DNA of 64,000 nt, taken from positions 64,058 to 128,057 of the forward strand of contig CAYRKM010000002.1 in the NCBI GenBank assembly GCA_964425075.1, read 5' to 3'. This document shows, piece after piece, positions 5,283 through 43,690 of the stretch. A program made the position numbers and the translations under genes. The notes beneath the pieces were generated by a model, which was not told where the DNA came from, ran no database searches, and saw only the letters and a program-made list of their open reading frames with translations. Position 1 is the first letter of the stretch. The number at the start of each line of letters is the position of its first letter. Origin of the DNA: an uncultured Gammaproteobacteria bacterium (GTDB lineage: Bacteria > Patescibacteriota > Microgenomatia > Levybacterales > GWA1-39-11).

Positions 5283-6206
5283 CTAGGTCATTTTGCCTTT
5301 TTCAATGCTGTGCTGACCAAATTGATTACGCATTCCAGTTAAAACTTTTCCTGTAAAACTTGGTGTTTTTTGTGAAGCTTTTCGAAATTTATAACTTCCC
5401 TCAATGATTTTTGCAGGAACTTTAAATTCTCTTGCTGTCTTTGCTGTCCACTCACCTTCACCCGTTGAGCCAACTGAACCCGAAACGTCCTTCAGGTCCT
5501 GACCATATACCTTAAAAGCATCTTGAAGCCAGCCAACAAGTCGAGAGGTAACAACGCTACCATGCTGATAAATTTCAGTCACGTCAATTAAATTAAGCCT
5601 GAAGGGGGATTTTTTCATGATTTCAAAGCCTTCAGCAATTGATTGCATCATTCCATATTCAATTCCGTTATGTACCATTTTTACAAAGTGACCCGCTCCA
5701 TATCCTTCAAAATGCATAACGCCTTTTGGAATTGAAACAGCTTCAAAAAGAGGTTTTAGATATTCAAAAGTAGCTTTCTCACCACCTACCATGCTGCATG
5801 CACCATTTCTAGCGCCTCCTGGTCCACCTGAAATACCTGCGTCCAGAAACTTTATGCCAAACTTTTTAAGCTTTCTAGCCCTAACTGCAGCTTCCTTATA
5901 GAAAGAATTACCCGCATCAATTATGATGTCTCCCTTTTGAAGATAAGTCGTAAGTCCTTTTTTTCCGAAAATAACCTCATCATTTGCTTTTCCGGCAGTT
6001 AACATAACCCAAACTACACGAGGAGCGGATAACTTATTTACTAATTCTTCCAACGAATATGCACCTTCCACGCCTTTCTTTTCAAAATTTTTAGTAACTT
6101 CTGAGGTTCTGTTGTATCCGACTACTTGCCACTTATGATCAATGAGGTTTAATGCAATGCCGCCACCCATGCGGCCCAGACCCACAACACCAATTCGTTT
6201 TTTCAT
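5283..6206 (-). CDS. gnd: 6-phosphogluconate dehydrogenase, decarboxylating (short, about 300-aa form)
   Basis: N-terminal Rossmann motif GVVGLGRMGGGIA, then DAGNS, GISGGPGGAR and HFVKMVHNGIEYGMMQ, all characteristic of 6PGDH. Confidence 0.85.
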   Translation of the reverse strand: MKKRIGVVGLGRMGGGIALNLIDHKWQVVGYNRTSEVTKNFEKKGVEGAYSLEELVNKLSAPRVVWVMLTAGKANDEVIFGKKGLTTYLQKGDIIIDAGNSFYKEAAVRARKLKKFGIKFLDAGISGGPGGARNGACSMVGGEKATFEYLKPLFEAVSIPKGVMHFEGYGAGHFVKMVHNGIEYGMMQSIAEGFEIMKKSPFRLNLIDVTEIYQHGSVVTSRLVGWLQDAFKVYGQDLKDVSGSVGSTGEGEWTAKTAREFKVPAKIIEGSYKFRKASQKTPSFTGKVLTGMRNQFGQHSIEKGKMT

Positions 6207-7660
6207 GTTTTAGATTGTAATATATTTTCCTCAATTATCATAGCGTCTTGTAATACTTTTTTAGAATTTGGCTTGTATTCCAAAAGTGGTTGAGCATTTT
6301 TCTCCCAAGAGTCAATTATCGGATCTATAAAATTCCACATTGCCTGAACTTCGTCCGTTGATACAAAGAGTAATTGGTTACCCAAAATACAATCTAAAAG
6401 TAATTTTTCATATTCTTCTACATACTGAGCGCGTTTTTTCCTTTCATCCCTATAAAGAAATGATAGGCGCTGAAGCTCCATCGAATATTCAAGCCCAGGT
6501 TTTTTTGACCAAAATTCAATTGCTATTCCTTCCCGAGGGTCAAGGGAGAATATAACTTTATTTTTAAAATGCATACCTGAAGGACAAAGGCATGGTTTAT
6601 TATGCTTAAAAGTGACTACAATCTCCTTGTTGTCGACAATCTTTTTCCCTGCCTCAATTATTATCGGAACATTTTTCCATTGAGATGATTTAAGCATTGC
6701 CACCAATTTAAAATATGTTTCTGTTTTTGAATTTTTACTAACTCCTTCCTCATTTTTATAACCCACAAACTGCGCCCGAAACGTCTTCTCGGTAACTTCA
6801 CGCATGGAAAGAGGTATCAGCTCTTCAAGAACTTTTGAACGAGCTTGCCTTACGTGTATGGGCGTCAGGTCTATGGGTTGCTCCATTGTAAGAAGAGCAA
6901 GCATCTGAAGCGCATGATTTTGCCCGACATCACGAAGAGCACCAATCCCATCATAAAATCCACCACGACTGTCAATTCCCATCTTTTCGAGAAGCCGGAT
7001 TTCTATTTTTTCTATATGCTCATTATTCCAAGTTTTTTCGAATAAATCATTCGAAAATCTAAAAGAAATAATATTTTGCATCATGTCTTTACCTAAATAA
7101 TGGTCAATTCTATAAATTTGCTCTTCCTTAAATAATTTACCCAATAATTCATCTAGTTCTTGGGCAGTATGAGCATCTTTTCCAAAAGGTTTCTCAACAA
7201 TAACCCGTGTCCATCCCTCTTCAGGACTACAGGGAAGAGTAAGACCTGATGAGTGAAGGTGTTCAAAAATGCTTTGGTAGTTACTTGGGGGAACAGCAAG
7301 ATAAAAAAGCTTGTTGGAGCAGGCTCTCCACTCATCATCCACCCGGCCTAAGTATGTTGCCATTTCGTTGTACGCATCTACTTCATCAAAATTTCCTTTT
7401 CTGTATTCAAAATATTTCAAAAAAGCATCAACATCACTTACTTTTATCCTTCTGTCTCGATTGTCTGAAAGAATTTTTCTAACATGCTCCTTGTATTCAT
7501 CCTGAGATATATCTCTTCTAGAAAATGCTATGATCTTGAAAAGATTAGGAAATTTACCACTTTTGTAGAGATGGAAGAGAGCAGGGGTAATTTTCTTGGC
7601 CATCAGATCCCCCGTGGCACCGAAAATGATAAATACTGTGGGGATATTTTTGTTTTCCAT
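6203..7660 (-). CDS. zwf: glucose-6-phosphate 1-dehydrogenase
   Basis: IFGATGDLMAKK dinucleotide motif, EKPFG, and the RIDHYLGK active-site motif. It overlaps gnd by 4 nt. Confidence 0.9.
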   Translation of the reverse strand: MENKNIPTVFIIFGATGDLMAKKITPALFHLYKSGKFPNLFKIIAFSRRDISQDEYKEHVRKILSDNRDRRIKVSDVDAFLKYFEYRKGNFDEVDAYNEMATYLGRVDDEWRACSNKLFYLAVPPSNYQSIFEHLHSSGLTLPCSPEEGWTRVIVEKPFGKDAHTAQELDELLGKLFKEEQIYRIDHYLGKDMMQNIISFRFSNDLFEKTWNNEHIEKIEIRLLEKMGIDSRGGFYDGIGALRDVGQNHALQMLALLTMEQPIDLTPIHVRQARSKVLEELIPLSMREVTEKTFRAQFVGYKNEEGVSKNSKTETYFKLVAMLKSSQWKNVPIIIEAGKKIVDNKEIVVTFKHNKPCLCPSGMHFKNKVIFSLDPREGIAIEFWSKKPGLEYSMELQRLSFLYRDERKKRAQYVEEYEKLLLDCILGNQLLFVSTDEVQAMWNFIDPIIDSWEKNAQPLLEYKPNSKKVLQDAMIIEENILQSKT

Positions 7661-7808: not shown

Positions 7809-10800
7809 TTGAGTATTATGGAGACTTTACATTCCGGTTTTGATCATCCTCCCGTTGGTCCTGCTCCACATCCTGATTCTTCAGGTAGACCCGTCACCCA
7901 CCCACTTCCTGGCGAGCTAGATGGGGAAGGAATGCTTGATCCAACATCTTTGGATTTCTGGCGAAATCTTCATGCTAACCTTACAGGCTTTATAAGCAAG
8001 AACTATCCCTTTTCAGATTTCCTTAAGAATTTCGATAGTGAGAAAGGGAAAGTGGGTCGCACACATTCAAATGGCGATACAAACGCCACATACGCATACC
8101 TTAATGCAATTTATAAACAGCGTTCATTCTCGCATCCCGGCCATCCTACTCTTGAGCAGCATATCGTCTCGCAATTCACACCTCCTACAGATGACCCCGA
8201 CTTTGCTGAAATTGTTGAAGAAACCCGCTCTCTTATTAGACAGCGTTTTCCAGAACATCAGCTTCCTAGAACGACAAGTCTTGTCAAGCTCCAAGATCCG
8301 GAATTTTGGAGCGAATTTGAGGATGAGCTTTCAAAAACTCCTTCGAGTTCAATATTTGCGGATTTTTTAAAAGGAGGAGGTGGCCTTTCTGAAGACGGTA
8401 GTCAGATGCAGGGAAAGTATCATGATGTCTGGCTTGATATATACGATCCTCGGGGTAGAACTGAATTTAGAAATGCATATAAGGAACAAACAGGAAGAGA
8501 TATAGATACTGATTCTGCAAGAGACGCTCAGAGGATTTTCTTCGAAGTAGCACCAGCACGTATAAAAGCACAGCTTATTAAGAGATATCCGAGAATTTTT
8601 AGTGGATTTGCAGTAGAGTGGGTAGGAAATTCTCAATTACCAAAAGCTGCCCAGGCTGTCATTAACACTCTCGGGTGGTTAGGTGAAGATAACCGAAAAA
8701 AAATACTTGACGTACTTTCGAAATATGTGCATATAGAAACAAGTAGTACTTCGGGTTTTGATTTTTCTGCTGAAGATACTAGCATTATTCTTGGACAAGC
8801 AGCAGAACAATCAGAAGTTGTAGCAGCAGAAGTTGGTCCGCCAACACTCGAAACTATTATTCGAGACGCAACTAATACTTTTCAGCTTGTTGAACAAGAA
8901 AAGTTGGATAATGGGAATTCTGAAAATGAACAACTGTCAAGTGAGCTAACAGCTGCCCTTGAAACATCCTATCTTTACCCAACACTTCGTAATGTTTTAT
9001 ATAAACCTTTCGCACTTTTTTGGTCAAAATATCTGGAGACTCATGGTGGGTCCTCTGTTCCCGAAGATGAAATGAGAAGTTTTCTTGACACATATGCACA
9101 TAATGAAATTGCTCAAACATCTCTATCGCCCGAAGAGCAGCAAATGCTTGAGCGTCTTAAAAAAAATGTTTTTTCCACTATTTTTAGTGAATTTATAGAA
9201 ATTGCAAATTACTCTTCTCAAATTAATCACTTCAGGGAAAGAAGCATCGACGGGAAAGCAAAGCATCTGTTTTTTCATCAGGTTGAGGGAATTAAGCATC
9301 TTGTCGAAAAAGGCGCCGGAATTTTAGCTGATGAACCAGGAACCGGCAAAACAGTGACCCTTGCGCTCGCAGCATTAAATCGAGTTGACCAAAAATTTCG
9401 AGAACCTGGAAAAATAGCAAGGGTGCTAGTTGTTGGATCAAAAACTGTTAATAACAACTGGGAGGAAGAACTTGAAATGCATGTTGCGCCAGGTGATGTC
9501 GATACAGTAAATTTCAATTCTGACGAACTTGCACAGTTAAGCCAGGCAAAACGCCTTGAAATAATGGCACAAAGATTGAAAAATCCTACAGCGGATAGAC
9601 AAGTTTTGCTTGTCAATTACGATCTGTTTCGCAATTCATTTTTTCAGGAACTCCTTCATTCTGCAGGAATTGACTGTACAATAATTGATGAAGCTCATAA
9701 TGTAAAATCGCGTTTTATGGATTCTATTGCTGAGCATAACGACGACACGTCCCATAATGCTCGACTTGCAAAACGCACAACAAATCTTTATAGATTTCTT
9801 CTTTCCAACCCGAATATGGATGTTTATTTGGGTACTAGCACTCCCTTCGTCAAAGAATTAATAGAGCCGCTTATCATGGGTCACCTGGTCGATAGGTGGA
9901 GTCTTCCAATTGACCGGGTTTCAGCTTTAAGGGAGGATCCTGCTGGAGCAAATTTGGCACTTCGTGAAGTAATGATTCGGCGACGAAAGGATGCAATCAG
10001 CGATATCCCCCCAAAAGACACAGACTTTATACCAGTAGACTTAAGCCTACTTAGTGCTGCGGAACGCTCGGAGCTTGTTTCATTGGGCCTTGATATAGAA
10101 AGAGCCGATGAAAGCTCTTTCAGAAGATTTTTTTCCATGTTGTCTATTGAAGCTCAAGCAAAAATGCCCTGGCTTATTGAGAAAATAAACGAGTTAACAT
10201 CTGATGGAAGAAAGGTAGTTGTTTTTACTCCATTCGTTAATGACCAGGAAAGACTTACAGCCTCAATAAGTACGAAGGCTATTGCAAAGCGACTTATTGA
10301 TTCAGGAATTACCTCTGTTGGAGTTCTTGATGGAACTTTAAGTGAAAGCGAAAAACTTGCTGTTCAAAGAGATTTTCATGACCCGAATGGGGTAAGAGTT
10401 TTGGTAGGTAATTATCAAACGGCAGGCGAATCAATTACACTTAATTCGCCTTTCAATAGAGCAACTGAAGTAATTATACTCGTTGCACCAAACACAATAA
10501 GTAGATACATTCAAGCAATTGATAGAGTGCATAGAATCGGACAAGATGAGAAGGTTACTATTCACGTGCCTTTTCTTACGGAAGACCCTATCGCAAGGCC
10601 AGACGGAACATATGACAGACGAATTGTTAGTCGAATGCTTAGAGAACTTTCACTCTTTAATGCTGTTGTAGATGGTTTATTTTTTGTTGAAGCTGCAGAT
10701 TATTACGATGAAATTAGACGGGGAAAAAACGGAAACTCAGAACCAAGAACCGCTCTTGAAAGTGGACAAACAGTTCGTTTGGATACAGAACAGAAGCCTC

Positions 10801-12245
10801 CTGCTGCTACTAAAAAAAGGGGCTTAACTCGGGATGTTTTTGACCAAAACACTGACGGAGCAATAGTACTACCAACAAGCAGAGAGGTAAATTTAAACAG
10901 TATTGGCATAAATCACACACGACATCACCAAATAGACAGAGAGGAAGCTTTGGCAATTACAGATTACTTCGACTCAGTGAGTCAATACCCTCTCCTTACA
11001 GTTGAGCAAGAACGTATAGCATTTAGATATCTAACTGAGGGAAAATCTGTCGCACAACTTCGTGATGATGGAGCATTTCTTGCGGCAAATCCTCGTAGCA
11101 CTGCAAAAATGCTTGCTGTACTTTCCGATAGTCGCTCCGTTAGAGATGTACTTGTTGCCTGTAATTTGAGACTCGTTGCCTCAATAGCAAATAGGTACAA
11201 AGGAAGACTTCCTTACACTGACCTGCTCCAGGAGGGAAATATTGGATTAATTAAGGGAATTGACGATTTTGACCCTGAGCGTGGATTAAAGCTTTCAACA
11301 TATGCAACCTGGTGGATTAAGCAATCAATAAGGCGTGCTATTGCTAATACGTCCCGAACTATTGACTTGCCTGTACACATGCATGAAATGGTCACAAAAA
11401 TGGTGCGTGTTTCAAATGAATTTTTTAGTAAACACCAGCGCTATCCATCTATAGAGGAGCTGGTTTCAGAAGGGTTTACTATATCCCAAGTTAACACAGC
11501 TATGCGCATAGCACGACTTGGAATTTCCAACCCCTCATCTCTTGATAGAACAATAGACGATGATGGTGAAACCACAATCGGGTCATTTGTTTCGGACGAA
11601 GGTGATCTTGAAGAAGAAACTATAGCCGCGATGGAAGAGGCTGAGCAAAGTCATATCGTTGGGCGTGCACTTTTATCTTTAAGCGAACGGGAACAGTTGG
11701 TGCTTACTCTTAGATTCGGGCTTGATGGTTCTGGCACTAGAACCCTTGAACAGGTTGGTAAAGAAATTGGTGTGACAAGAGAAAGAGCACGACAAATAGA
11801 AGTTAGTGCCCTAAAAAGACTTCGAGTAAATACCGGGCTTAGGGAGGCATACGATGGAGATTCCCCAAGTTTGCTTTGGTCAAGGGAAGTCTTGCCTACA
11901 AACGTATTGCCTCTTAGACCAGGGCCAATAGACATTGAGAGGGTCTCAGCAATCTCACAAGCTCAAGAAGTAGAAAGGTTGGAGGAGGAGAAAAACAGTC
12001 TTGAATTTGGCAGACAAGTTGTGGAACAAATAAAAATGGTACCTGATATATGGAATGCTTTAACTGATAGAGAGAAGACGCTTTTGACTCTTTATTTTAA
12101 AGGCACATTTGACCACAACACTACTAAAAGTAGACTTTCAAAAATCTTTGGCATAACCGAACAAGAGCTGTCTGTTTACATCGAGTATTCTGTTGCTTCT
12201 CTAGCCAAACACGTTGGTATGACATCCTCTGAGCTTCCTTCTTGA
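7809..12245 (+). CDS. fusion protein: unknown N-terminal region + SNF2-family ATPase + complete sigma-70 + extra C-terminal region-4-like HTH
   Basis: Single 1478-codon ORF with no internal stop. The track start is TTG at 7809, and an ATG lies at 7818. SNF2 motifs: LADEPGTGKT, IIDEAHNVK, QAIDRVHRIGQ. Sigma motifs: YPLLTVEQE, LLQEGNIGLIKGIDDFD, TYATWWIKQSIRRAI, TIDLPVHMHE, VTRERARQIEVSALKRLR. Confidence 0.85.
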   Translation: MSIMETLHSGFDHPPVGPAPHPDSSGRPVTHPLPGELDGEGMLDPTSLDFWRNLHANLTGFISKNYPFSDFLKNFDSEKGKVGRTHSNGDTNATYAYLNAIYKQRSFSHPGHPTLEQHIVSQFTPPTDDPDFAEIVEETRSLIRQRFPEHQLPRTTSLVKLQDPEFWSEFEDELSKTPSSSIFADFLKGGGGLSEDGSQMQGKYHDVWLDIYDPRGRTEFRNAYKEQTGRDIDTDSARDAQRIFFEVAPARIKAQLIKRYPRIFSGFAVEWVGNSQLPKAAQAVINTLGWLGEDNRKKILDVLSKYVHIETSSTSGFDFSAEDTSIILGQAAEQSEVVAAEVGPPTLETIIRDATNTFQLVEQEKLDNGNSENEQLSSELTAALETSYLYPTLRNVLYKPFALFWSKYLETHGGSSVPEDEMRSFLDTYAHNEIAQTSLSPEEQQMLERLKKNVFSTIFSEFIEIANYSSQINHFRERSIDGKAKHLFFHQVEGIKHLVEKGAGILADEPGTGKTVTLALAALNRVDQKFREPGKIARVLVVGSKTVNNNWEEELEMHVAPGDVDTVNFNSDELAQLSQAKRLEIMAQRLKNPTADRQVLLVNYDLFRNSFFQELLHSAGIDCTIIDEAHNVKSRFMDSIAEHNDDTSHNARLAKRTTNLYRFLLSNPNMDVYLGTSTPFVKELIEPLIMGHLVDRWSLPIDRVSALREDPAGANLALREVMIRRRKDAISDIPPKDTDFIPVDLSLLSAAERSELVSLGLDIERADESSFRRFFSMLSIEAQAKMPWLIEKINELTSDGRKVVVFTPFVNDQERLTASISTKAIAKRLIDSGITSVGVLDGTLSESEKLAVQRDFHDPNGVRVLVGNYQTAGESITLNSPFNRATEVIILVAPNTISRYIQAIDRVHRIGQDEKVTIHVPFLTEDPIARPDGTYDRRIVSRMLRELSLFNAVVDGLFFVEAADYYDEIRRGKNGNSEPRTALESGQTVRLDTEQKPPAATKKRGLTRDVFDQNTDGAIVLPTSREVNLNSIGINHTRHHQIDREEALAITDYFDSVSQYPLLTVEQERIAFRYLTEGKSVAQLRDDGAFLAANPRSTAKMLAVLSDSRSVRDVLVACNLRLVASIANRYKGRLPYTDLLQEGNIGLIKGIDDFDPERGLKLSTYATWWIKQSIRRAIANTSRTIDLPVHMHEMVTKMVRVSNEFFSKHQRYPSIEELVSEGFTISQVNTAMRIARLGISNPSSLDRTIDDDGETTIGSFVSDEGDLEEETIAAMEEAEQSHIVGRALLSLSEREQLVLTLRFGLDGSGTRTLEQVGKEIGVTRERARQIEVSALKRLRVNTGLREAYDGDSPSLLWSREVLPTNVLPLRPGPIDIERVSAISQAQEVERLEEEKNSLEFGRQVVEQIKMVPDIWNALTDREKTLLTLYFKGTFDHNTTKSRLSKIFGITEQELSVYIEYSVASLAKHVGMTSSELPS
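9264..10583 (+). other. SNF2/Swi2-type helicase core (N-lobe plus Helicase_C lobe) inside the fusion ORF
   Basis: aa ~486-925. Walker A LADEPGTGKT (nt 9324-9353), DEAH box IIDEAHNVK (nt 9681-9707), motif III-like LGTSTPF, motif VI QAIDRVHRIGQ (nt 10512-10544). Confidence 0.8.
10938..11828 (+). other. sigma-70 regions 1.2, 2, 3 and 4 inside the fusion ORF
   Basis: aa ~1044-1340. By eye this aligns block for block with RpoD-type sigma factors, including the region 2.4 and 4.2 recognition helices. Confidence 0.85.
12036..12218 (+). other. second region-4-like HTH at the C-terminus of the fusion ORF
   Basis: aa ~1410-1470. LTDREKTLLTLYFKG...SRLSKIFGITEQELSVYIEYSVASLAKHV parallels the upstream LSEREQLVLTLRFGL...LEQVGKEIGVTRERARQIEVSALKRL. 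Confidence 0.55.
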
Positions 12246-16650: not shown

Positions 16651-17448
16651 GTGTATAAAAAACATATGGAAGTTTTAGTATATATTCTCTTATTTAACCT
16701 TTTTGGGAGCGTCATTTCACTTTTTGGTGGAGTACTTCTTCTCCTAAATAGAAATTTTTCACATAGTGTCTCTCATTATCTTTCCTCATTTGCTGCTGGA
16801 ACACTACTTGGAGCAGCTTTTTTTGACCTTTTACCTGAAGCATTGGGTGAGGGAGAGCATTCTGGGATAAAGATAATTACAATTTTTGCTTGGACACTAA
16901 CAGGTATTTTGTTTTTCTTTCTTATTGAAAGATTTTTGCATTGGTTTCATCATCATGGCTACGAAGACCATGAAGCTACCGGAAAACCCACAATTCCACT
17001 AATTGTAATAGGAGATACAATCCATAACTTCATTGATGGGATTGCAATTGCCGCAACATTTATGCTTAGTATTCCACTTGGAATAGTTACCACCTTTGCA
17101 GTTGCCGCTCATGAAATACCTCAAGAAATTGGTGACTTTGGTATTATGCTTAAGAATGGGCTAAGCCGAAGAAAGATACTGACAGTAAATATAGGCAGCG
17201 CATTAGCCTCCTTTATTGGAGCCATTCTTGCTTTTTATTTCATAGAGCAAGTAGAGGGTCTTACTGCAATATTTCTATCTCTAACCGCCGGCTTTTTCTT
17301 ATATATAGCACTTTCAGATCTTATTCCAGAGATTCATCACGAAAACAAAAAAGGGCTTGCTCTTTGGGAAACAACTTGCCTTTTAACTGGAGTAATTGTT
17401 ATGTACCTTGCTATTTTAATTCTGGAGAGTTCATTGGGGGGACACTAG
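16651..17448 (+). CDS. ZIP-family divalent metal transporter (ZupT-like)
   Basis: HNFIDGIAIAA and HEIPQEIGDFG signatures, plus a His-rich loop HWFHHHGYEDHE. The start is probably the ATG at 16666 rather than the GTG at 16651. Confidence 0.85.
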   Translation: MYKKHMEVLVYILLFNLFGSVISLFGGVLLLLNRNFSHSVSHYLSSFAAGTLLGAAFFDLLPEALGEGEHSGIKIITIFAWTLTGILFFFLIERFLHWFHHHGYEDHEATGKPTIPLIVIGDTIHNFIDGIAIAATFMLSIPLGIVTTFAVAAHEIPQEIGDFGIMLKNGLSRRKILTVNIGSALASFIGAILAFYFIEQVEGLTAIFLSLTAGFFLYIALSDLIPEIHHENKKGLALWETTCLLTGVIVMYLAILILESSLGGH

Positions 17449-17452
17449 AAGA

Positions 17453-17959
17453 TTATTGAACAATCAAAGTTCCTACCATTCCCATTGCTCGATGATTACC
17501 AACGCTACAGTAGTATTCGAAACTTCCTTTTTTAGTAGCCTTAAATTTAATAGTTTCAGAACTTCCGGCCTGTAAAACTTTGGTTCTTGCACTAAATTCA
17601 TCAATCACCCAGTCATGTGTACCCTGAGCATTAGTAAACACTATTTCAACAATATCTCCCTCATTTACCGTAATAGTTTTGGGATCAAACTTAAAAGCGC
17701 TTCCTGTAACTTTAAAGGATTTAACTTCACCCTCAGCCATATCTCCATTTGACTCAGACTGTAATTCTTGGGCAACTGTAGGCTCGGCTTGAATATCAGT
17801 TGTGGTTTGCGTAGAAGGTTTTTGTGTTAAAAAGTAGGCTATTATTCCAATGACTGCAACCGCAGCAACAATTCCAATAATGATAGTGGTGCTCATTCCT
17901 TTCTGTGAATTTCTGAATTTCATAATAATTAATATGCCATTCTTTGAAAAAAATGTCAA
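17453..17959 (-). CDS. membrane-anchored cupredoxin (type-1 blue copper protein)
   Basis: N-terminal TM helix, then a cupredoxin-like domain with ligand pattern GTHDW ... YYCSVGNHRAMGM (His, Cys-x4-His-x3-Met). Confidence 0.75.
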   Translation of the reverse strand: MTFFSKNGILIIMKFRNSQKGMSTTIIIGIVAAVAVIGIIAYFLTQKPSTQTTTDIQAEPTVAQELQSESNGDMAEGEVKSFKVTGSAFKFDPKTITVNEGDIVEIVFTNAQGTHDWVIDEFSARTKVLQAGSSETIKFKATKKGSFEYYCSVGNHRAMGMVGTLIVQ

Positions 17960-17961
17960 GC

Positions 17962-19482
17962 CTAGAACCCTGGGAAGTAGTCGGTTACAATGTTCTGCCT
18001 TGAAACACCAAGACCCAAAAGCATTTTTCTATATCCATCTACCATTGAGATAGGCCCTGATAAATAAAACGTTCTGTTTTTATAGTCATTTACATATTTC
18101 TTAAGGTTTTCTTTGTTTAATCTTCCCACCCCACCTTTCCAATCAGGAGGAATATTCTTTTCATCAGTCAAGCAATAAATAGTAGTTATTCCTAGTTTTT
18201 TTGCCTCATTAAATAATTCTTTATAAACAATTTCTTCTTCTCGCCCATTGGAATAGAGCAAAACAATATCTCTTTTCTCATTGGAGTCAACTAGATATTT
18301 AATAATGCTTCGAAAAGGGGTTATTCCAATTCCTCCTGCAATAAATACCAATTTCTTGTTCTTTTCACTTGGTAAAATAAAGTCTCCAGTCAATTGGTCC
18401 GCTGTTATTTTTTCCTTTTCCCTAAATTCAAAGAGCCTTTGCTTAAAACTACTAGACTTTTCACTATATCGTACACCCAGTCTTAAAATATCCTCAGTCG
18501 GAGATGATGCGATAGTAAAAAATCTTCTGTTACCCCTTATGTCAGTTTTTAATTGAGGAACCGTCCACTCAAAATACTGCCCAGCTTTAAAAACCAAATT
18601 TTTTGGCTTTTCAAAAACAAACTCATAAGTGTTCTTGGCAATCTCTTTTTTTTCAATAAACGGAACTATGTATTTTTGTCTTTTGCTAATCAAAAATGAA
18701 AACAAATTTCCTATTACAAGCGAAAGTTCAGGTGAGGAAGCAATGAAACCGAAGGAAAACGGAGTTGAATATAGCGCTCCTACAAAAACCCCATATAAAA
18801 TCTGTAACCTTCTTGTTGGAGGAGTCGTATATGGTTCGGTGAGCATAATTGTAGCAAAAAAAACAGTTGGTAAAGCCATAAAAAACTCCTGAGTGGAGTC
18901 GCCCACGCTATTTACGCGAAACAATCCAAACAGAATATAAAACAAAAGTGAAGGGAGTATAAAGGAAAATAAAAAAACAAATCTTCTAATCTTTCTAACA
19001 ACTAACAACCCTAAGACAATAGTTGGGAATAACAAAAATGGATGTGCCACCCACCAAATGCCGCCTCCCAAATTTAAAAGACTTAAAACAACCAAGGTGA
19101 ATGCAACTGGGTTGAAGATATGGTGTTTTTTGTATGCAAAAATGTATTTTGAACCCATAGCTATAACTATGGCCATTAGATAAACTTTAACGTCTAAAAG
19201 TGATTGAAGGGGAATGAGTAAGAAAAAGAGAATAAGCCCCGTTATGTAGGCAGACTCAGAATTTATTGTAGCTTTGAATAATTTTGCAAAAAGGAAATTC
19301 ACAAAAAAAGTTACCCCAAAAAGAAATATGAGAGAAAACAATAGAGAAATTCCACCATCAGGCAAAATTCCCAGAAAGCCCAAAATTATTGAATAGAATG
19401 CTAAAGCAAGAAGTCCATACATCACGAGCCTATACATCGTGATGGAGTTGAGCAACTGGTCAATGCGTTGAAGGACAAACAT
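17962..19482 (-). CDS. polytopic membrane domain (RnfD/NqrB-like, tentative) fused to an FNR-type FAD/NAD(P)-binding reductase
   Basis: 506 aa. The N-terminal ~270 aa is multi-TM with HIFNPVAF and MLTEPYTTPPT. The C-terminal half has RFFTIASSP (RxYS-type FAD motif) and LVFIAGGIGITPF (NAD(P) motif). It lies 2 nt upstream of the cupredoxin gene. Confidence 0.65.
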   Translation of the reverse strand: MFVLQRIDQLLNSITMYRLVMYGLLALAFYSIILGFLGILPDGGISLLFSLIFLFGVTFFVNFLFAKLFKATINSESAYITGLILFFLLIPLQSLLDVKVYLMAIVIAMGSKYIFAYKKHHIFNPVAFTLVVLSLLNLGGGIWWVAHPFLLFPTIVLGLLVVRKIRRFVFLFSFILPSLLFYILFGLFRVNSVGDSTQEFFMALPTVFFATIMLTEPYTTPPTRRLQILYGVFVGALYSTPFSFGFIASSPELSLVIGNLFSFLISKRQKYIVPFIEKKEIAKNTYEFVFEKPKNLVFKAGQYFEWTVPQLKTDIRGNRRFFTIASSPTEDILRLGVRYSEKSSSFKQRLFEFREKEKITADQLTGDFILPSEKNKKLVFIAGGIGITPFRSIIKYLVDSNEKRDIVLLYSNGREEEIVYKELFNEAKKLGITTIYCLTDEKNIPPDWKGGVGRLNKENLKKYVNDYKNRTFYLSGPISMVDGYRKMLLGLGVSRQNIVTDYFPGF

Positions 19483-19530: not shown

Positions 19531-19628
19531 GAACTCGCAAAGTGAACGAAACTAAAGTGCCTGCGCTGAATGAAGCTGAAGTGCTTGCACTGAGTGAAGC
19601 TGAAGTGCTTGCACTGAGTGAAGCGAAG
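19531..19628 (-). repeat. tRNA-trailer tandem repeats (24-nt unit with AGTGCWWGCACT box)
   Basis: Units GAAGTGCTTGCACTGAGTGAAGCT at 19578-19601 and 19602-19624. A variant unit sits at 19554-19577 and a degenerate unit at 19531-19553. The array abuts the 3' end of tRNA-Ala. Confidence 0.85.
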
Positions 19629-19699
19629 TGGACCCGAGGGGAATTGAACCCCTCCCTCATCCATGCCATGGATGCATTCTACCGATGAACTACGGGCCC
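19629..19699 (-). tRNA. tRNA-Ala (GGC)
   Basis: Hand-folded. Acceptor GGGCCCG with the G3:U70 identity pair, anticodon arm CATCC-ATGGCAT-GGATG, T-loop TTCAATT. Confidence 0.9.
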
Positions 19700-19735: not shown

Positions 19736-19800
19736 GAAGTGCCTGTGCTGAGGAACGTAAAGACGAAGTGCCTGCACTGAGAAACGTAAAGACGAAGTGC
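19736..19800 (-). repeat. 29-nt tandem repeat (2.2 copies) of the same box family, upstream of tRNA-Ala
   Basis: GAAGTGCCTGTGCTGAGGAACGTAAAGAC (19736-19764) and GAAGTGCCTGCACTGAGAAACGTAAAGAC (19765-19793), then GAAGTGC. Confidence 0.8.
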
Positions 19801-21679: not shown

Positions 21680-21754
21680 TTTGCCTGCACTGAACAAAGC
21701 TGAATGTGCTTGCACTGAACAAAGCTGAATGTGCTTGCACTGAGTGAAACGAAG
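21680..21754 (-). repeat. tRNA-trailer tandem repeats (three 25-nt units)
   Basis: Units at 21680-21704, 21705-21729 and 21730-21754 (TGTGCTTGCACTGAACAAAGCTGAA and variants). The array abuts the 3' end of tRNA-Leu(TAA). Confidence 0.85.
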
Positions 21755-23553: not shown

Positions 23554-24708
23554 CTAACGACCAATAAACCTTCTGAAGTATACAAATAAAACTCCTAGTC
23601 CAAGCGTCATCGCTACAAATGATATTAACCAACCAATTATTGGAATCCAAGTTATTACCCACAACACAGGAACTCCAACAAAAGAGGCTAGTGGTAGAGA
23701 GACTTTGTATGTCTTTTTTTTATTGTAAGAAAGAATCTCGTGTCCTAAGTAAATACCTGCAAGCATTTTACTAAGCATTAATGCAATAATCCAAATAAGT
23801 CCCAATAAAACAGCAATGGGGATACCTATGAGTGTGAATAGAAGAAATATCACCAAAATTGGAGTAAGGAAAAGCACAACAAGTCCCCAACCAAAAAGAG
23901 ATATTTTATCATGCTTAATACCCTCAACTAACTCTTGAATTAGTTTTGGAAGGAAAAATGCCAACAGTATCGCAAAAAGAGTAAACGAAACCAAGGACAT
24001 GATTTGTCCCACTAACCATACTAAAGTAAAAAACTTGGCGAATTCAGAAGCTTGCTTGTTCTGTGTCTGCAACTCAATCTGCTTATAGTTAGTCCTTCCT
24101 GAAACCGTAGCGTTGTCTAAAATTTCTGCTTTTTGTGGTGAACGATAGGAGAAATTCCCTTTTATAAGTGCGTCATCAGCAAGAGTCACTTTTTGAGACT
24201 CTACATCTACTTTTCCATTAACAGTGCCTGTTACATATAAATCTTGCATGACACCTGATATGTCTCTGGAAACAACACCCATAATGTTTACAGATTGTCC
24301 CGCAGACATAATCTCACCATTTATTCTTCCGTTTTTCTCTATGATTAACTCTTGCCCCAAAAAAGCAACATTTCTTTCAACAGTACCGGCAATAATTAGT
24401 GTTTGCCCAGCAAATCTAACATCACCATTGACCGTTCCCTCAATTCGTAAAGTTTGCCCAGCACATAGTACGTCCCCTTGGACAACGCCTACAACCTTTA
24501 AACTTTGCCCGGCACAAAACACGTCGCTTGCTACATTTCCATTAACTGTTACATTTTGTCCCGTACCAATAAGAGTCTCATTGATAATTACGTCTCGTGG
24601 AACAGTAATATTGTCACCAGAACGTACGGAAATGGCATGCGAGGTTGAAGGAAAAAAAACAAAAAGGAGAACAAACGTTATCACAAAATACTGAATCAAA
24701 CGTTTCAT
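23554..24708 (-). CDS. membrane protein with bactofilin-like beta-helical repeats (hypothetical)
   Basis: Signal-like N-terminus. About 8 tandem ~19-aa repeats of the form V.G.V.GDV..AGQ.L.I.G, then a C-terminal block of about 4 TM helices. Confidence 0.55.
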   Translation of the reverse strand: MKRLIQYFVITFVLLFVFFPSTSHAISVRSGDNITVPRDVIINETLIGTGQNVTVNGNVASDVFCAGQSLKVVGVVQGDVLCAGQTLRIEGTVNGDVRFAGQTLIIAGTVERNVAFLGQELIIEKNGRINGEIMSAGQSVNIMGVVSRDISGVMQDLYVTGTVNGKVDVESQKVTLADDALIKGNFSYRSPQKAEILDNATVSGRTNYKQIELQTQNKQASEFAKFFTLVWLVGQIMSLVSFTLFAILLAFFLPKLIQELVEGIKHDKISLFGWGLVVLFLTPILVIFLLFTLIGIPIAVLLGLIWIIALMLSKMLAGIYLGHEILSYNKKKTYKVSLPLASFVGVPVLWVITWIPIIGWLISFVAMTLGLGVLFVYFRRFIGR

Positions 24709-34975: not shown

Positions 34976-35029
34976 GAGTCCTCTCAGGCCCACTTCGTCC
35001 GCCTACCGGCGGACTCAGTGCGGGCACTT
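34976..35029 (+). repeat. displaced duplicate of the tRNA-Leu(GAG) 3' end carrying the CTTC...AGTGCGGGCACT trailer
   Basis: The 17 nt GAGTCCTCTCAGGCCCA at 34976-34992 equals 34922-34938, and the trailer-family sequence follows it. A 5'-end fragment TTTGGGCTTGTCCTGA at 35056-35071 matches 34852-34867 at 15 of 16 positions. Confidence 0.8.
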
Positions 35030-37350: not shown

Positions 37351-37491
37351 GATGTGCCTGCACTGTGCAAGAAGTGTTACGTTGTGAAACAAAGTCTCGA
37401 AGTGCTTTCATCGATCAAGAAGTGCTTGCGCTGAACGAAATGGAAGCCTGCACTGAATGAAGTTGAGGTGCTTGCACTGAACGTAGTGAAG
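37351..37491 (-). repeat. tRNA-trailer repeat array downstream of tRNA-Leu(CAG)
   Basis: On the minus strand it reads CTTCACTACGTTCAGTGCAAGCACCTCAACTTCATTCAGTGCAGGC..., with 4-5 boxes of the AGTGCWWGCACT family that degenerate with distance. Confidence 0.8.
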
Positions 37492-39253: not shown

Positions 39254-39352
39254 CTTCACTACGTTCAGTGCAAGCACCTCAACTTCATTCAGTGCAGGCT
39301 TCCATTTCGTTCAGTGCAAGTACTTCGGGGCCTTGTTTCTCAGCGCTTGCAC
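39254..39352 (+). repeat. tRNA-trailer repeat array downstream of tRNA-Leu(TAG)
   Basis: The first 72 nt (39254-39325) match the reverse complement of 37420-37491 at all but 2 positions. Four boxes of the AGTGCWWGCACT family are present. Confidence 0.85.
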
Positions 39353-43623: not shown

Positions 43624-43690
43624 CTTCACTTCGTTCAGTGCAGGCACTTCAGTTTCGTTCAGCACGGGTACTTCGTTACACTCAGCACAG
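43624..43690 (+). repeat. tRNA-trailer repeat array
   Basis: CTTCACTTCGTTCAGTGCAGGCACTTCAGTTTCGTTCAGCACGGGTACTTCGTTACACTCAGCACAGACAC, i.e. three progressively degenerate units. Confidence 0.8.

Follow-up and report, generated by a model that had tools for sequence, protein, structure and literature searches.

Introduction

Systems that use NAD(P)H to reduce an acceptor outside the cytosol were defined as 'NQR/RNF-like systems' by Meheust et al. 2021 (PMC8238504), and a two-subunit Nqr/Rnf-like complex with the same direction of transfer was later modelled by Huang et al. 2024 (PMC10979944). It was proposed in the latter work that the covalent flavin mononucleotide (FMN) of an NqrC/RnfG-like partner docks into the non-covalent flavin site of the membrane subunit. 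The 2021 definition needs a flavinylation-associated gene cluster, that is ApbE and its substrate, and the same study found extracytosolic flavinylation to be strikingly under-represented across the Candidate Phyla Radiation (CPR). The present study deals with a 64-kb stretch of DNA (64,000 nucleotides (nt) of contig CAYRKM010000002.1, called the window hereafter) in which a gene for a fused RnfD/NqrB-like and FNR-type membrane reductase is followed by a gene for a membrane-tethered type-1 copper protein (cupredoxin). The reading that we moderately favour is that the two genes form a two-gene Nqr/Rnf-like variant, in which the tethered copper protein would replace the ApbE-flavinylated, NqrC/RnfG-like FMN_bind output subunit.

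CPR bacteria, or Patescibacteria, are generally regarded as fermenting organisms that have no electron-transport chain. Many of them nevertheless encode a single-domain cupredoxin, and some encode the nitrite reductase NirK. Danczak et al. 2017 (PMC5581439) found a cupredoxin in every NirK-bearing CPR bin and presumed it to be the NirK donor, with electrons reaching it 'by an unknown means'. A 2025 survey (PMC12931201) again proposed plastocyanin (pcy) as the NirK donor and called the pcy-reducing protein 'as-yet unidentified'. A different protein, with membrane, rubredoxin and FNR parts, was described in Absconditabacteria by Moreira et al. 2021. In the open-access full-text literature no paper was found that links CPR cupredoxins to RnfD-FNR or NOX-type reductases, which is not proof of novelty.

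Results

The fusion gene occupies positions 17962-19482 of the minus strand and codes for a protein of 506 amino acids (aa). It is a member of an already described family, the membrane subunit of the Nqr/Rnf-like extracytosolic electron-transfer system. An earlier note on this DNA had taken the fusion to be unusual for its lineage, but the family is large, and it is prominent in CPR. The homologue search gave thousands of relatives, the best 120 of which cover 96-100% of the query at 47-73% identity, and a scan with one genome per species gave 425 fusion loci, distributed among CPR, Ktedonobacteria and other Chloroflexota, Rhizobiales, Microbacteriaceae, Micrococcaceae and Spirochaetota. The fusion alone is therefore ordinary, and what is new is that a cupredoxin stands where the flavinylated subunit and ApbE normally are.

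The normal context of the family was established from the best 80 of the 425 species-representative loci. Directly upstream of the fusion gene, relatives carry a family of about 257 aa which is ApbE (Pfam 137 bits), and upstream of ApbE lies a membrane-anchored family of about 174 aa with the consensus YKDGxYTG...D-x-VSGAT-x-TS, which is FMN_bind. The flavinylation motif is present in 49 of 54 members of the latter family; the member at locus L023 is missed by the Pfam FMN_bind profile, its identity resting on the family consensus and on the literature. Hidden Markov models (HMMs) built from the genes of 53-54 relatives detected FMN_bind in 70/80 and ApbE in 68/80 fusion loci, and the order FMN_bind-ApbE-fusion on one strand was seen in 54/80. 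Run on all open reading frames (ORFs) of 40 aa or more in the 64-kb window, the same models gave no match, even with the threshold relaxed to E <= 10, and the window locus is thus an exception to the defining context of its family. Canonical members, 33-54% identical to the window fusion, share with it the NqrB/RnfD-like domain fused to a PF00175 NAD-binding module, the length of about 505 aa, the loss of the flavinylated Thr and the NAD(P)H-to-outside direction. The window differs in having neither ApbE nor an NqrC/RnfG-like FMN_bind gene within its 64 kb and in carrying a cupredoxin gene in the adjacent position. Such a locus would have gone uncounted under the published definition, since a flavinylation-associated cluster is required there.

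Both ApbE and FMN_bind are missing in 6/80 species-level loci with intact upstream flanks (L057, L043, L048, L016, L035 and L060). L016, L035 and L060 are 'orphan' fusions with nothing obvious adjoining, and among relatives at about 50% identity L167 is canonical and L165 again an 'orphan'. It was also observed that in L048 (L048:7977-10731) genes for a DsbA-like thioredoxin and a VKOR homologue come after the orphan fusion on its strand, a hint that some members of the fusion family may feed extracytoplasmic disulfide/thiol redox systems.

The earlier note had named a lack of co-occurrence of the two genes in relatives as grounds for refuting its proposal, and this is largely what was seen: about 88% of relatives pair the fusion with FMN_bind and ApbE, and a cupredoxin partner is confined to the close relatives and a few independent lineages. 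The order fusion then cupredoxin is kept in L162 and L163 (fusion 91-98% identical) and in L164 (71%, with a cupredoxin 83% identical). In L057 a bona fide cupredoxin gene and a second cupredoxin-like gene lie directly upstream of the fusion on the same strand, and in L043 a cupredoxin-like gene abuts the 3' end of the fusion. From the cupredoxin side, where 80 metagenome loci with close relatives of the window cupredoxin were compiled, the fusion has a true orthologue in a single locus (L123), in convergent orientation at a distance of 247 nt. L022 has FMN_bind-ApbE-fusion plus a cupredoxin gene 4 kb downstream. In a neighbour-joining tree the cupredoxin-linked fusions (the window with L164, L057, L043 and L123) fall at no fewer than four separate positions among FMN_bind-linked ones, which suggests, as far as a crude tree can, repeated partner exchange in the family. 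Local FMN_bind/ApbE was present in 0/4 cupredoxin-adjacent lineages versus 71/76 others (Fisher p = 8e-5). Cupredoxin adjacency and local FMN_bind/ApbE are mutually exclusive.

The same cupredoxin family also stands beside a second kind of reductase. Among the functionally suggestive neighbours in the 80 cupredoxin loci the commonest has about 443 aa and is encoded directly before or after the cupredoxin gene on its strand, at intervals of -7 to 93 nt. It has Ferric_reduct, FAD_binding_8 and NAD_binding_1 domains, that is, it is a NOX/ferric-reductase-type NAD(P)H-dependent transmembrane electron carrier. With a dedicated HMM this fused form was found in 10/80 loci (L093, L095, L102, L111, L118, L122, L125, L135, L150 and L152), and a split form, consisting of cupredoxin, a Ferric_reduct membrane protein and a stand-alone FNR, was found at L116:1620-3548. 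Fused and split forms together place a NOX/FRE-type reductase next to the cupredoxin in 11/80 loci (~14%), and counting L123 there are 12/80 with a membrane reductase that has an FNR module. When 8 cases in 60 loci were set against an assumed rate of 0.002 to 0.01 per locus, chance gave P from 6e-13 to 2e-7. ApbE and FMN_bind were absent from all 80 cupredoxin loci. Two non-homologous membrane domains, the RnfD fold and the bis-haem FRD, thus share an FNR-type NAD(P)H module and are both linked to one cupredoxin family, which suggests that the cupredoxin is the extracytoplasmic acceptor of FNR-module membrane reductases. We regard this as the strongest argument. The cupredoxin/NOX-type operon of CPR contigs appears to be undescribed in the searchable literature.

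NOX/ferric-reductase-type enzymes such as SpNOX work on the same plan as the window fusion, with an NAD(P)H/FAD module joined to a membrane part through which electrons pass outward, and in CPR they adjoin the same cupredoxin family. Their membrane domain differs, being a six-helix bis-haem domain unrelated to the 10-helix RnfD/NqrB fold of the window protein; no Ferric_reduct (PF01794) match was obtained for the fusion in Pfam, and its resemblance to NOX is confined to the FNR half. The earlier note had suggested a compact NAD(P)H-to-extracytoplasmic module, and this proposal gains support, as the fusion family has been assigned such a role (PMC8238504, PMC10979944) and the cupredoxin is repeatedly encoded beside NAD(P)H-dependent membrane reductases.

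Some further genes recur around both partners. A small membrane-anchored DUF5666 protein is encoded near the fusion in 6 loci and near the cupredoxin in 5 (e.g. L008:9583-10041 and L119:488-928). An OmpR-type two-component system is represented by a His kinase in 16 fusion and 5 cupredoxin loci and by a response regulator in 14 fusion loci, and MacB-type ABC transporters recur near fusion genes as well as near cupredoxin genes. These recurrences suggest a shared envelope-stress or redox neighbourhood.

Profile searches agree with the domains first proposed for the fusion protein. The match to Pfam NQR2_RnfD_RnfE (aa 155-267) scores 29.7 bits with a cut-off of 27.7, NAD_binding_1 is matched at E = 2e-15, and NCBIfam gives a series of FNR-type reductase matches, NqrF among them. 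The motifs HIFNPVAF, MLTEPYTTPPT, RFFTIASSP and VFIAGGIGITPF, on which the proposal had been built, are all present, and their columns are invariant or near-invariant in the family alignment. An AlphaFold2 model of the full fusion, built with 30 homologues, was confident (pLDDT 87, pTM 0.77), and the N-terminal membrane domain (18673..19482, aa 1 to ~270) modelled alone was better still (pLDDT 89.5, pTM 0.87). By fold comparison this ten-helix model has the RnfD fold, and on the model the kinship with RnfD/NqrB covers the whole domain of about 270 aa, beyond the two motifs. A sequence-only search of the domain against PDB chains gave a weak RnfD match (E = 0.16), which pairs the invariant M-L-T-E-P-x-T-T-P-P with A-T-D-P-V-T-S-P of RnfD. 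E216 of the fusion aligns there to the Asp of the RnfD TDPVTSP motif and may be the counterpart of NqrB-D397, a Na+-site residue.

The C-terminal FNR/NqrF-type FAD- and NAD(P)H-binding module (17962..18672, aa ~271-506 and the stop codon) retains R-x-F-T, GGIG-x-TP, SGP and a C-terminal aromatic residue, which are invariant in the family alignment and support the NAD(P)H-to-FAD step in this module. The order of the ten helices and the K/R-rich loops (YKKHH, RKIRRF, TRR) predict, under the positive-inside rule, an N-in/C-in topology with the FNR module in the cytoplasm. On this predicted topology the invariant polar residues S77, K112, H121, N124, E216 and T219, with P125, cluster at the cytoplasmic helix ends, and W143 and W144 would lie at the outer face. 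Such an arrangement would allow for a non-covalent flavin site on the inner side and a further site on the outer side. The [S/T]GA[T/S] flavinylation motif was found in the first 280 aa of 0/77 family members, the window protein included, in agreement with the published absence of the flavinylation Thr motif from the fusion family (PMC10979944 Fig. 3F-G). P152 is the only position that differs by partner; it does so in 3/4 cupredoxin-linked lineages and is too weak to interpret. Na+-NQR (NqrB, NqrF) and Rnf (RnfD) differ from the window protein, which is a single polypeptide without the covalent-FMN Thr, a 2Fe-2S domain, or a quinone or ferredoxin partner. No NqrA/C/D/E- or RnfA/B/C/E/G-like subunit is present among the annotated window ORFs.

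The cupredoxin matches Cupredoxin_1 (46.2 bits) and Copper-bind (45.8 bits), both over their cut-offs, with the domain at nt 17456-17734. The copper ligands are H103 (in GTHDW), C139, H144 and M149, spaced C-x4-H-x4-M, and they are invariant in 36 homologues. Of the ligand set named in the earlier note the His, Cys, His and 'GM' Met thus stand, and the 'RAM' Met, which varies in homologues, does not; the axial ligand is accordingly taken to be the 'GM' Met. The mechanical ORF reaches a TTG at 17959 (168 aa), but the true start is probably the ATG at 17923, since it is used by the public gene call and is conserved among homologues. The resulting protein of 156 aa (17453..17923, minus strand), by which the ligands are numbered, opens with MKFRNSQKG. 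It has a K/R-rich N-terminus, a single hydrophobic helix (nt 17828-17884), a Thr/Gln/Glu-rich linker of about 30 aa and the copper domain. The single N-terminal transmembrane helix with its K/R-rich N-terminus predicts a copper domain outside the membrane, so that both proteins have the sidedness that had been anticipated. In a cell without an outer membrane, a carrier tethered to the external side of the membrane would be expected to have such a layout.

In its single domain and His-Cys-His-Met site the window cupredoxin resembles known small blue-copper carriers, namely pseudoazurin and azurin, which feed NirK, the anchored halocyanin and sulfocyanin, and CPR 'pcy', and, like such carriers in organisms without an outer membrane, it has its anchor at the N-terminus. 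Its family, found in many CPR genomes, is named 'plastocyanin' or 'cupredoxin domain-containing protein' in public databases. The known carriers are reduced by bc1, cytochrome c or quinol-linked complexes, whereas direct reduction by an NAD(P)H-dependent membrane flavoprotein is proposed here, and no NirK was found near the window cupredoxin by Pfam search of about 50 window ORFs.

The ORF check of the window confirmed the coordinates and strands given earlier for the fusion, the cupredoxin and a convergent ZIP-family divalent-metal transporter (16651..17448, plus strand). The gap between fusion and cupredoxin, previously put at 2 nt, becomes a spacer of 38 nt (17924..17961) when counted from the fusion stop codon to the likely ATG. 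The two genes are most likely one operon, as they lie on the same strand and no terminator-like site occurs within the spacer. One promoter-like match falls in the spacer, but it carries little weight because the regional count (11 versus 9.6 expected) is at chance level. On the strand of the fusion gene, 146 nt upstream of it, is a tRNA-Ala(GGC) gene (19628..19699, minus strand). This synteny is preserved in L164, and the tRNA and the redox operon may share one promoter. A scan of the upstream region for riboswitches or regulatory RNAs found only tRNAs.

The closest matches of both redox proteins are in Patescibacteria/CPR, including Levybacteria, Daviesbacteria and Gottesmanbacteria. The window has a GC content of about 38% and 14 tRNA genes in 64 kb. 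Its roughly 50 Pfam-annotated ORFs are housekeeping genes (aminoacyl-tRNA synthetases, PBP1, RecG, PilM, trigger factor, RNase III, TrmD) or transporters (MFS, EamA, CorA, Na/Ca-exchanger), with no Rnf/Nqr subunits or other respiratory enzymes among them. G6PD and 6PGD, the NADPH-forming steps of the pentose-phosphate pathway, are also encoded, at 5283-7660 on the minus strand, with a 4-nt overlap and about 10 kb from the redox pair. As NADPH sources they would need a re-oxidation route.

Discussion

The comparative data make a functional NAD(P)H-to-cupredoxin link somewhat more probable than its absence. In the mechanism proposed here, cytoplasmic NAD(P)H would reduce the FAD of the C-terminal FNR/NqrF-like module, and the RnfD/NqrB-fold domain would then conduct the electrons across the membrane, presumably with one or more non-covalently bound flavins as carriers. 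The outer site could be served by a non-covalent flavin, or the copper centre could approach directly, and this is the least secure step. The Cu(II) of the cupredoxin, held at the outer face by its N-terminal anchor and flexible linker, would be reduced there by direct transfer, and the reduced cupredoxin would pass single electrons to an extracytoplasmic acceptor encoded outside the window. Candidates could be a NirK-type nitrite reductase, as proposed for CPR, other periplasmic oxidoreductases, O2 or metal chelates. By this route a cell that has no classical respiratory chain would re-oxidise its NAD(P)H and export reducing power. Flow in the reverse direction, from cupredoxin to NAD(P)+, was rejected, as it would run about 0.6 V uphill by established potentials.

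Several observations weigh against this mechanism. No NirK, multicopper oxidase or cytochrome that could be the terminal acceptor was found by Pfam among the ~50 window ORFs. Adjacency to a cupredoxin is rare in the fusion set (2-3/77 loci), and an RnfD-type fusion occurs in 1/80 cupredoxin loci. Two of the independent pairings are convergent and so not co-transcribed, and the protein of L043 is without the Cys ligand. No residue pattern clearly splits cupredoxin-linked from FMN_bind-linked fusions. In the canonical model the outer flavin site of the membrane subunit is filled by the covalent FMN of the partner (PMC10979944), and without an FMN_bind partner the distance from the inner flavin to the copper may be too long. 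The search for ApbE and FMN_bind covered 64 kb, and the partner may be encoded elsewhere, as may be the case for the orphans L016, L035, L048, L060 and L165.

The last two points lead to a three-component system, in which a flavinylated FMN_bind partner and ApbE are encoded elsewhere in the genome and the cupredoxin is a further acceptor or merely co-regulated. The existence of 'orphan' fusions without local ApbE or FMN_bind, and L022 with its complete FMN_bind-ApbE-fusion cluster and a cupredoxin downstream, speak for this explanation. We nevertheless consider it unlikely, because all cupredoxin-adjacent lineages are without local FMN_bind/ApbE while ~93% of the others keep these genes beside the fusion, because neither gene occurs in any of the cupredoxin loci, and because extracytosolic flavinylation is so under-represented in CPR (PMC8238504). 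The two proteins could also serve unrelated processes, their order being shared by descent: most relatives are without the pairing, its conservation at 71-98% identity could be inherited synteny alone, and the two convergent gene pairs are weak as 'independent' cases. That the adjacency is accidental seems distinctly improbable, as the association recurs in at least four lineages with differing arrangements, with a binomial P of ~0.01 in the fusion set and the far lower values given above for NOX-type reductases beside the cupredoxin, and as the window genes lie 38 nt apart on one strand with no terminator-like site between them and the pairing excludes FMN_bind/ApbE. A more ambitious possibility is that the pair by itself makes up a minimal respiratory chain, acting as an NAD(P)H:cupredoxin oxidoreductase that translocates Na+ or H+. 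The RnfD/NqrB-type domain is homologous to the proposed Na+-channel subunit of Na+-NQR, and the acidic residue of the T-D/E-P motif is kept. If it were so, a CPR cell without a classical chain would draw on the potential drop from ~-320 mV to ~+300 mV to energise its membrane and its F-type ATP synthase, but ion translocation by the pair is judged to be very unlikely.

The metal-related explanations start from the ZIP transporter, which matches Pfam Zip (PF02535) with 152.9 bits, along with a weaker ZupT match under its cut-off, and which had been linked in the earlier note to reduction of metals for uptake. The pair would then reduce extracellular Fe(III) or Cu(II), and the adjoining ZIP would import the reduced ion. 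The 3' ends of the ZIP and cupredoxin genes are 4 nt apart, an arrangement kept in L162 and L163; in L022 and L099 a ZIP gene is convergent with the cupredoxin within a few kb; and a VIT1 iron transporter is present in some Nqr/Rnf-like clusters (PMC8238504). However, the convergent ZIP gene is not co-transcribed with the pair, and its adjacency is retained solely in L162 and L163, where ZIP is ~97% identical, ZIP being found otherwise in 1/80 fusion loci and 3/80 cupredoxin loci. Moreover, type-1 copper sites are buried and coordinatively saturated, and they carry electrons rather than reduce metals. Given this restricted adjacency, ZIP was rejected as a part of the module. A loose ZIP-cupredoxin association is possible, the data give no support to a reduction-for-uptake module, and metal uptake as the function of the pair is highly improbable. 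A role for the cupredoxin in copper binding or resistance, like that of CopI/CupA, in place of electron transport is more improbable still, indeed extremely so. In its favour are a weak NCBIfam match to CopI and the neighbouring metal transporter, but the match reaches 24 bits against a 280-bit cut-off, the full His-Cys-His-Met type-1 set is invariant, and the sequence has no extra His/Met-rich copper-binding segments. The family is also found repeatedly beside NAD(P)H reductases and not beside CopA or CopZ. CopI-type copper resistance was thus set aside.

With electron transfer from NAD(P)H to the cupredoxin as the preferred reading, the locus points to copper proteins as possible substitutes for the flavinylated output subunit in Nqr/Rnf-like systems. 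Such a replacement of flavin by copper would extend the interchangeability of flavin and cytochrome already noted for extracytosolic electron transfer. In addition, RnfD-FNR and NOX/FRE-type single-polypeptide NAD(P)H reductases become testable candidates for the direct reductant of CPR 'plastocyanin'.

Other features of the window

The motif TCAGTGCARGCACTT, with the palindromic core AGTGCAAGCACT, occurs in 14 copies in the window where 0.24 are expected by chance. The repeat sites are at 19543-19630, 19736-19800, 21704-21743, 35015-35029, 37352-37480, 39265-39325 and 43635-43649. Every copy adjoins a tRNA gene (Ala, Leu x4, Val) in the orientation of the tRNA and mostly at its 3' flank. Between tRNA-Ala and the fusion gene the motif forms a 24-nt tandem array of 3.7 copies, and in L164 a similar motif follows the tRNA. 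It was considered whether the tandem repeat is an operator of the redox operon, and this was rejected as the motif flanks tRNAs window-wide. It may be a tRNA-processing, termination or protein-binding element.

Two further genes have unusual or composite products. The plus-strand ORF at 7809-12245 codes for 1478 aa in which an SNF2-family helicase (SNF2-rel_dom and Helicase_C, aa ~490-911) is fused to a complete sigma-70 factor with regions 2, 3 and 4 (aa ~1115-1339), an unusual architecture. The 384-aa protein encoded at 23554-24708 on the minus strand has bactofilin repeats in its N-terminal half and a polytopic membrane domain in its C-terminal half.

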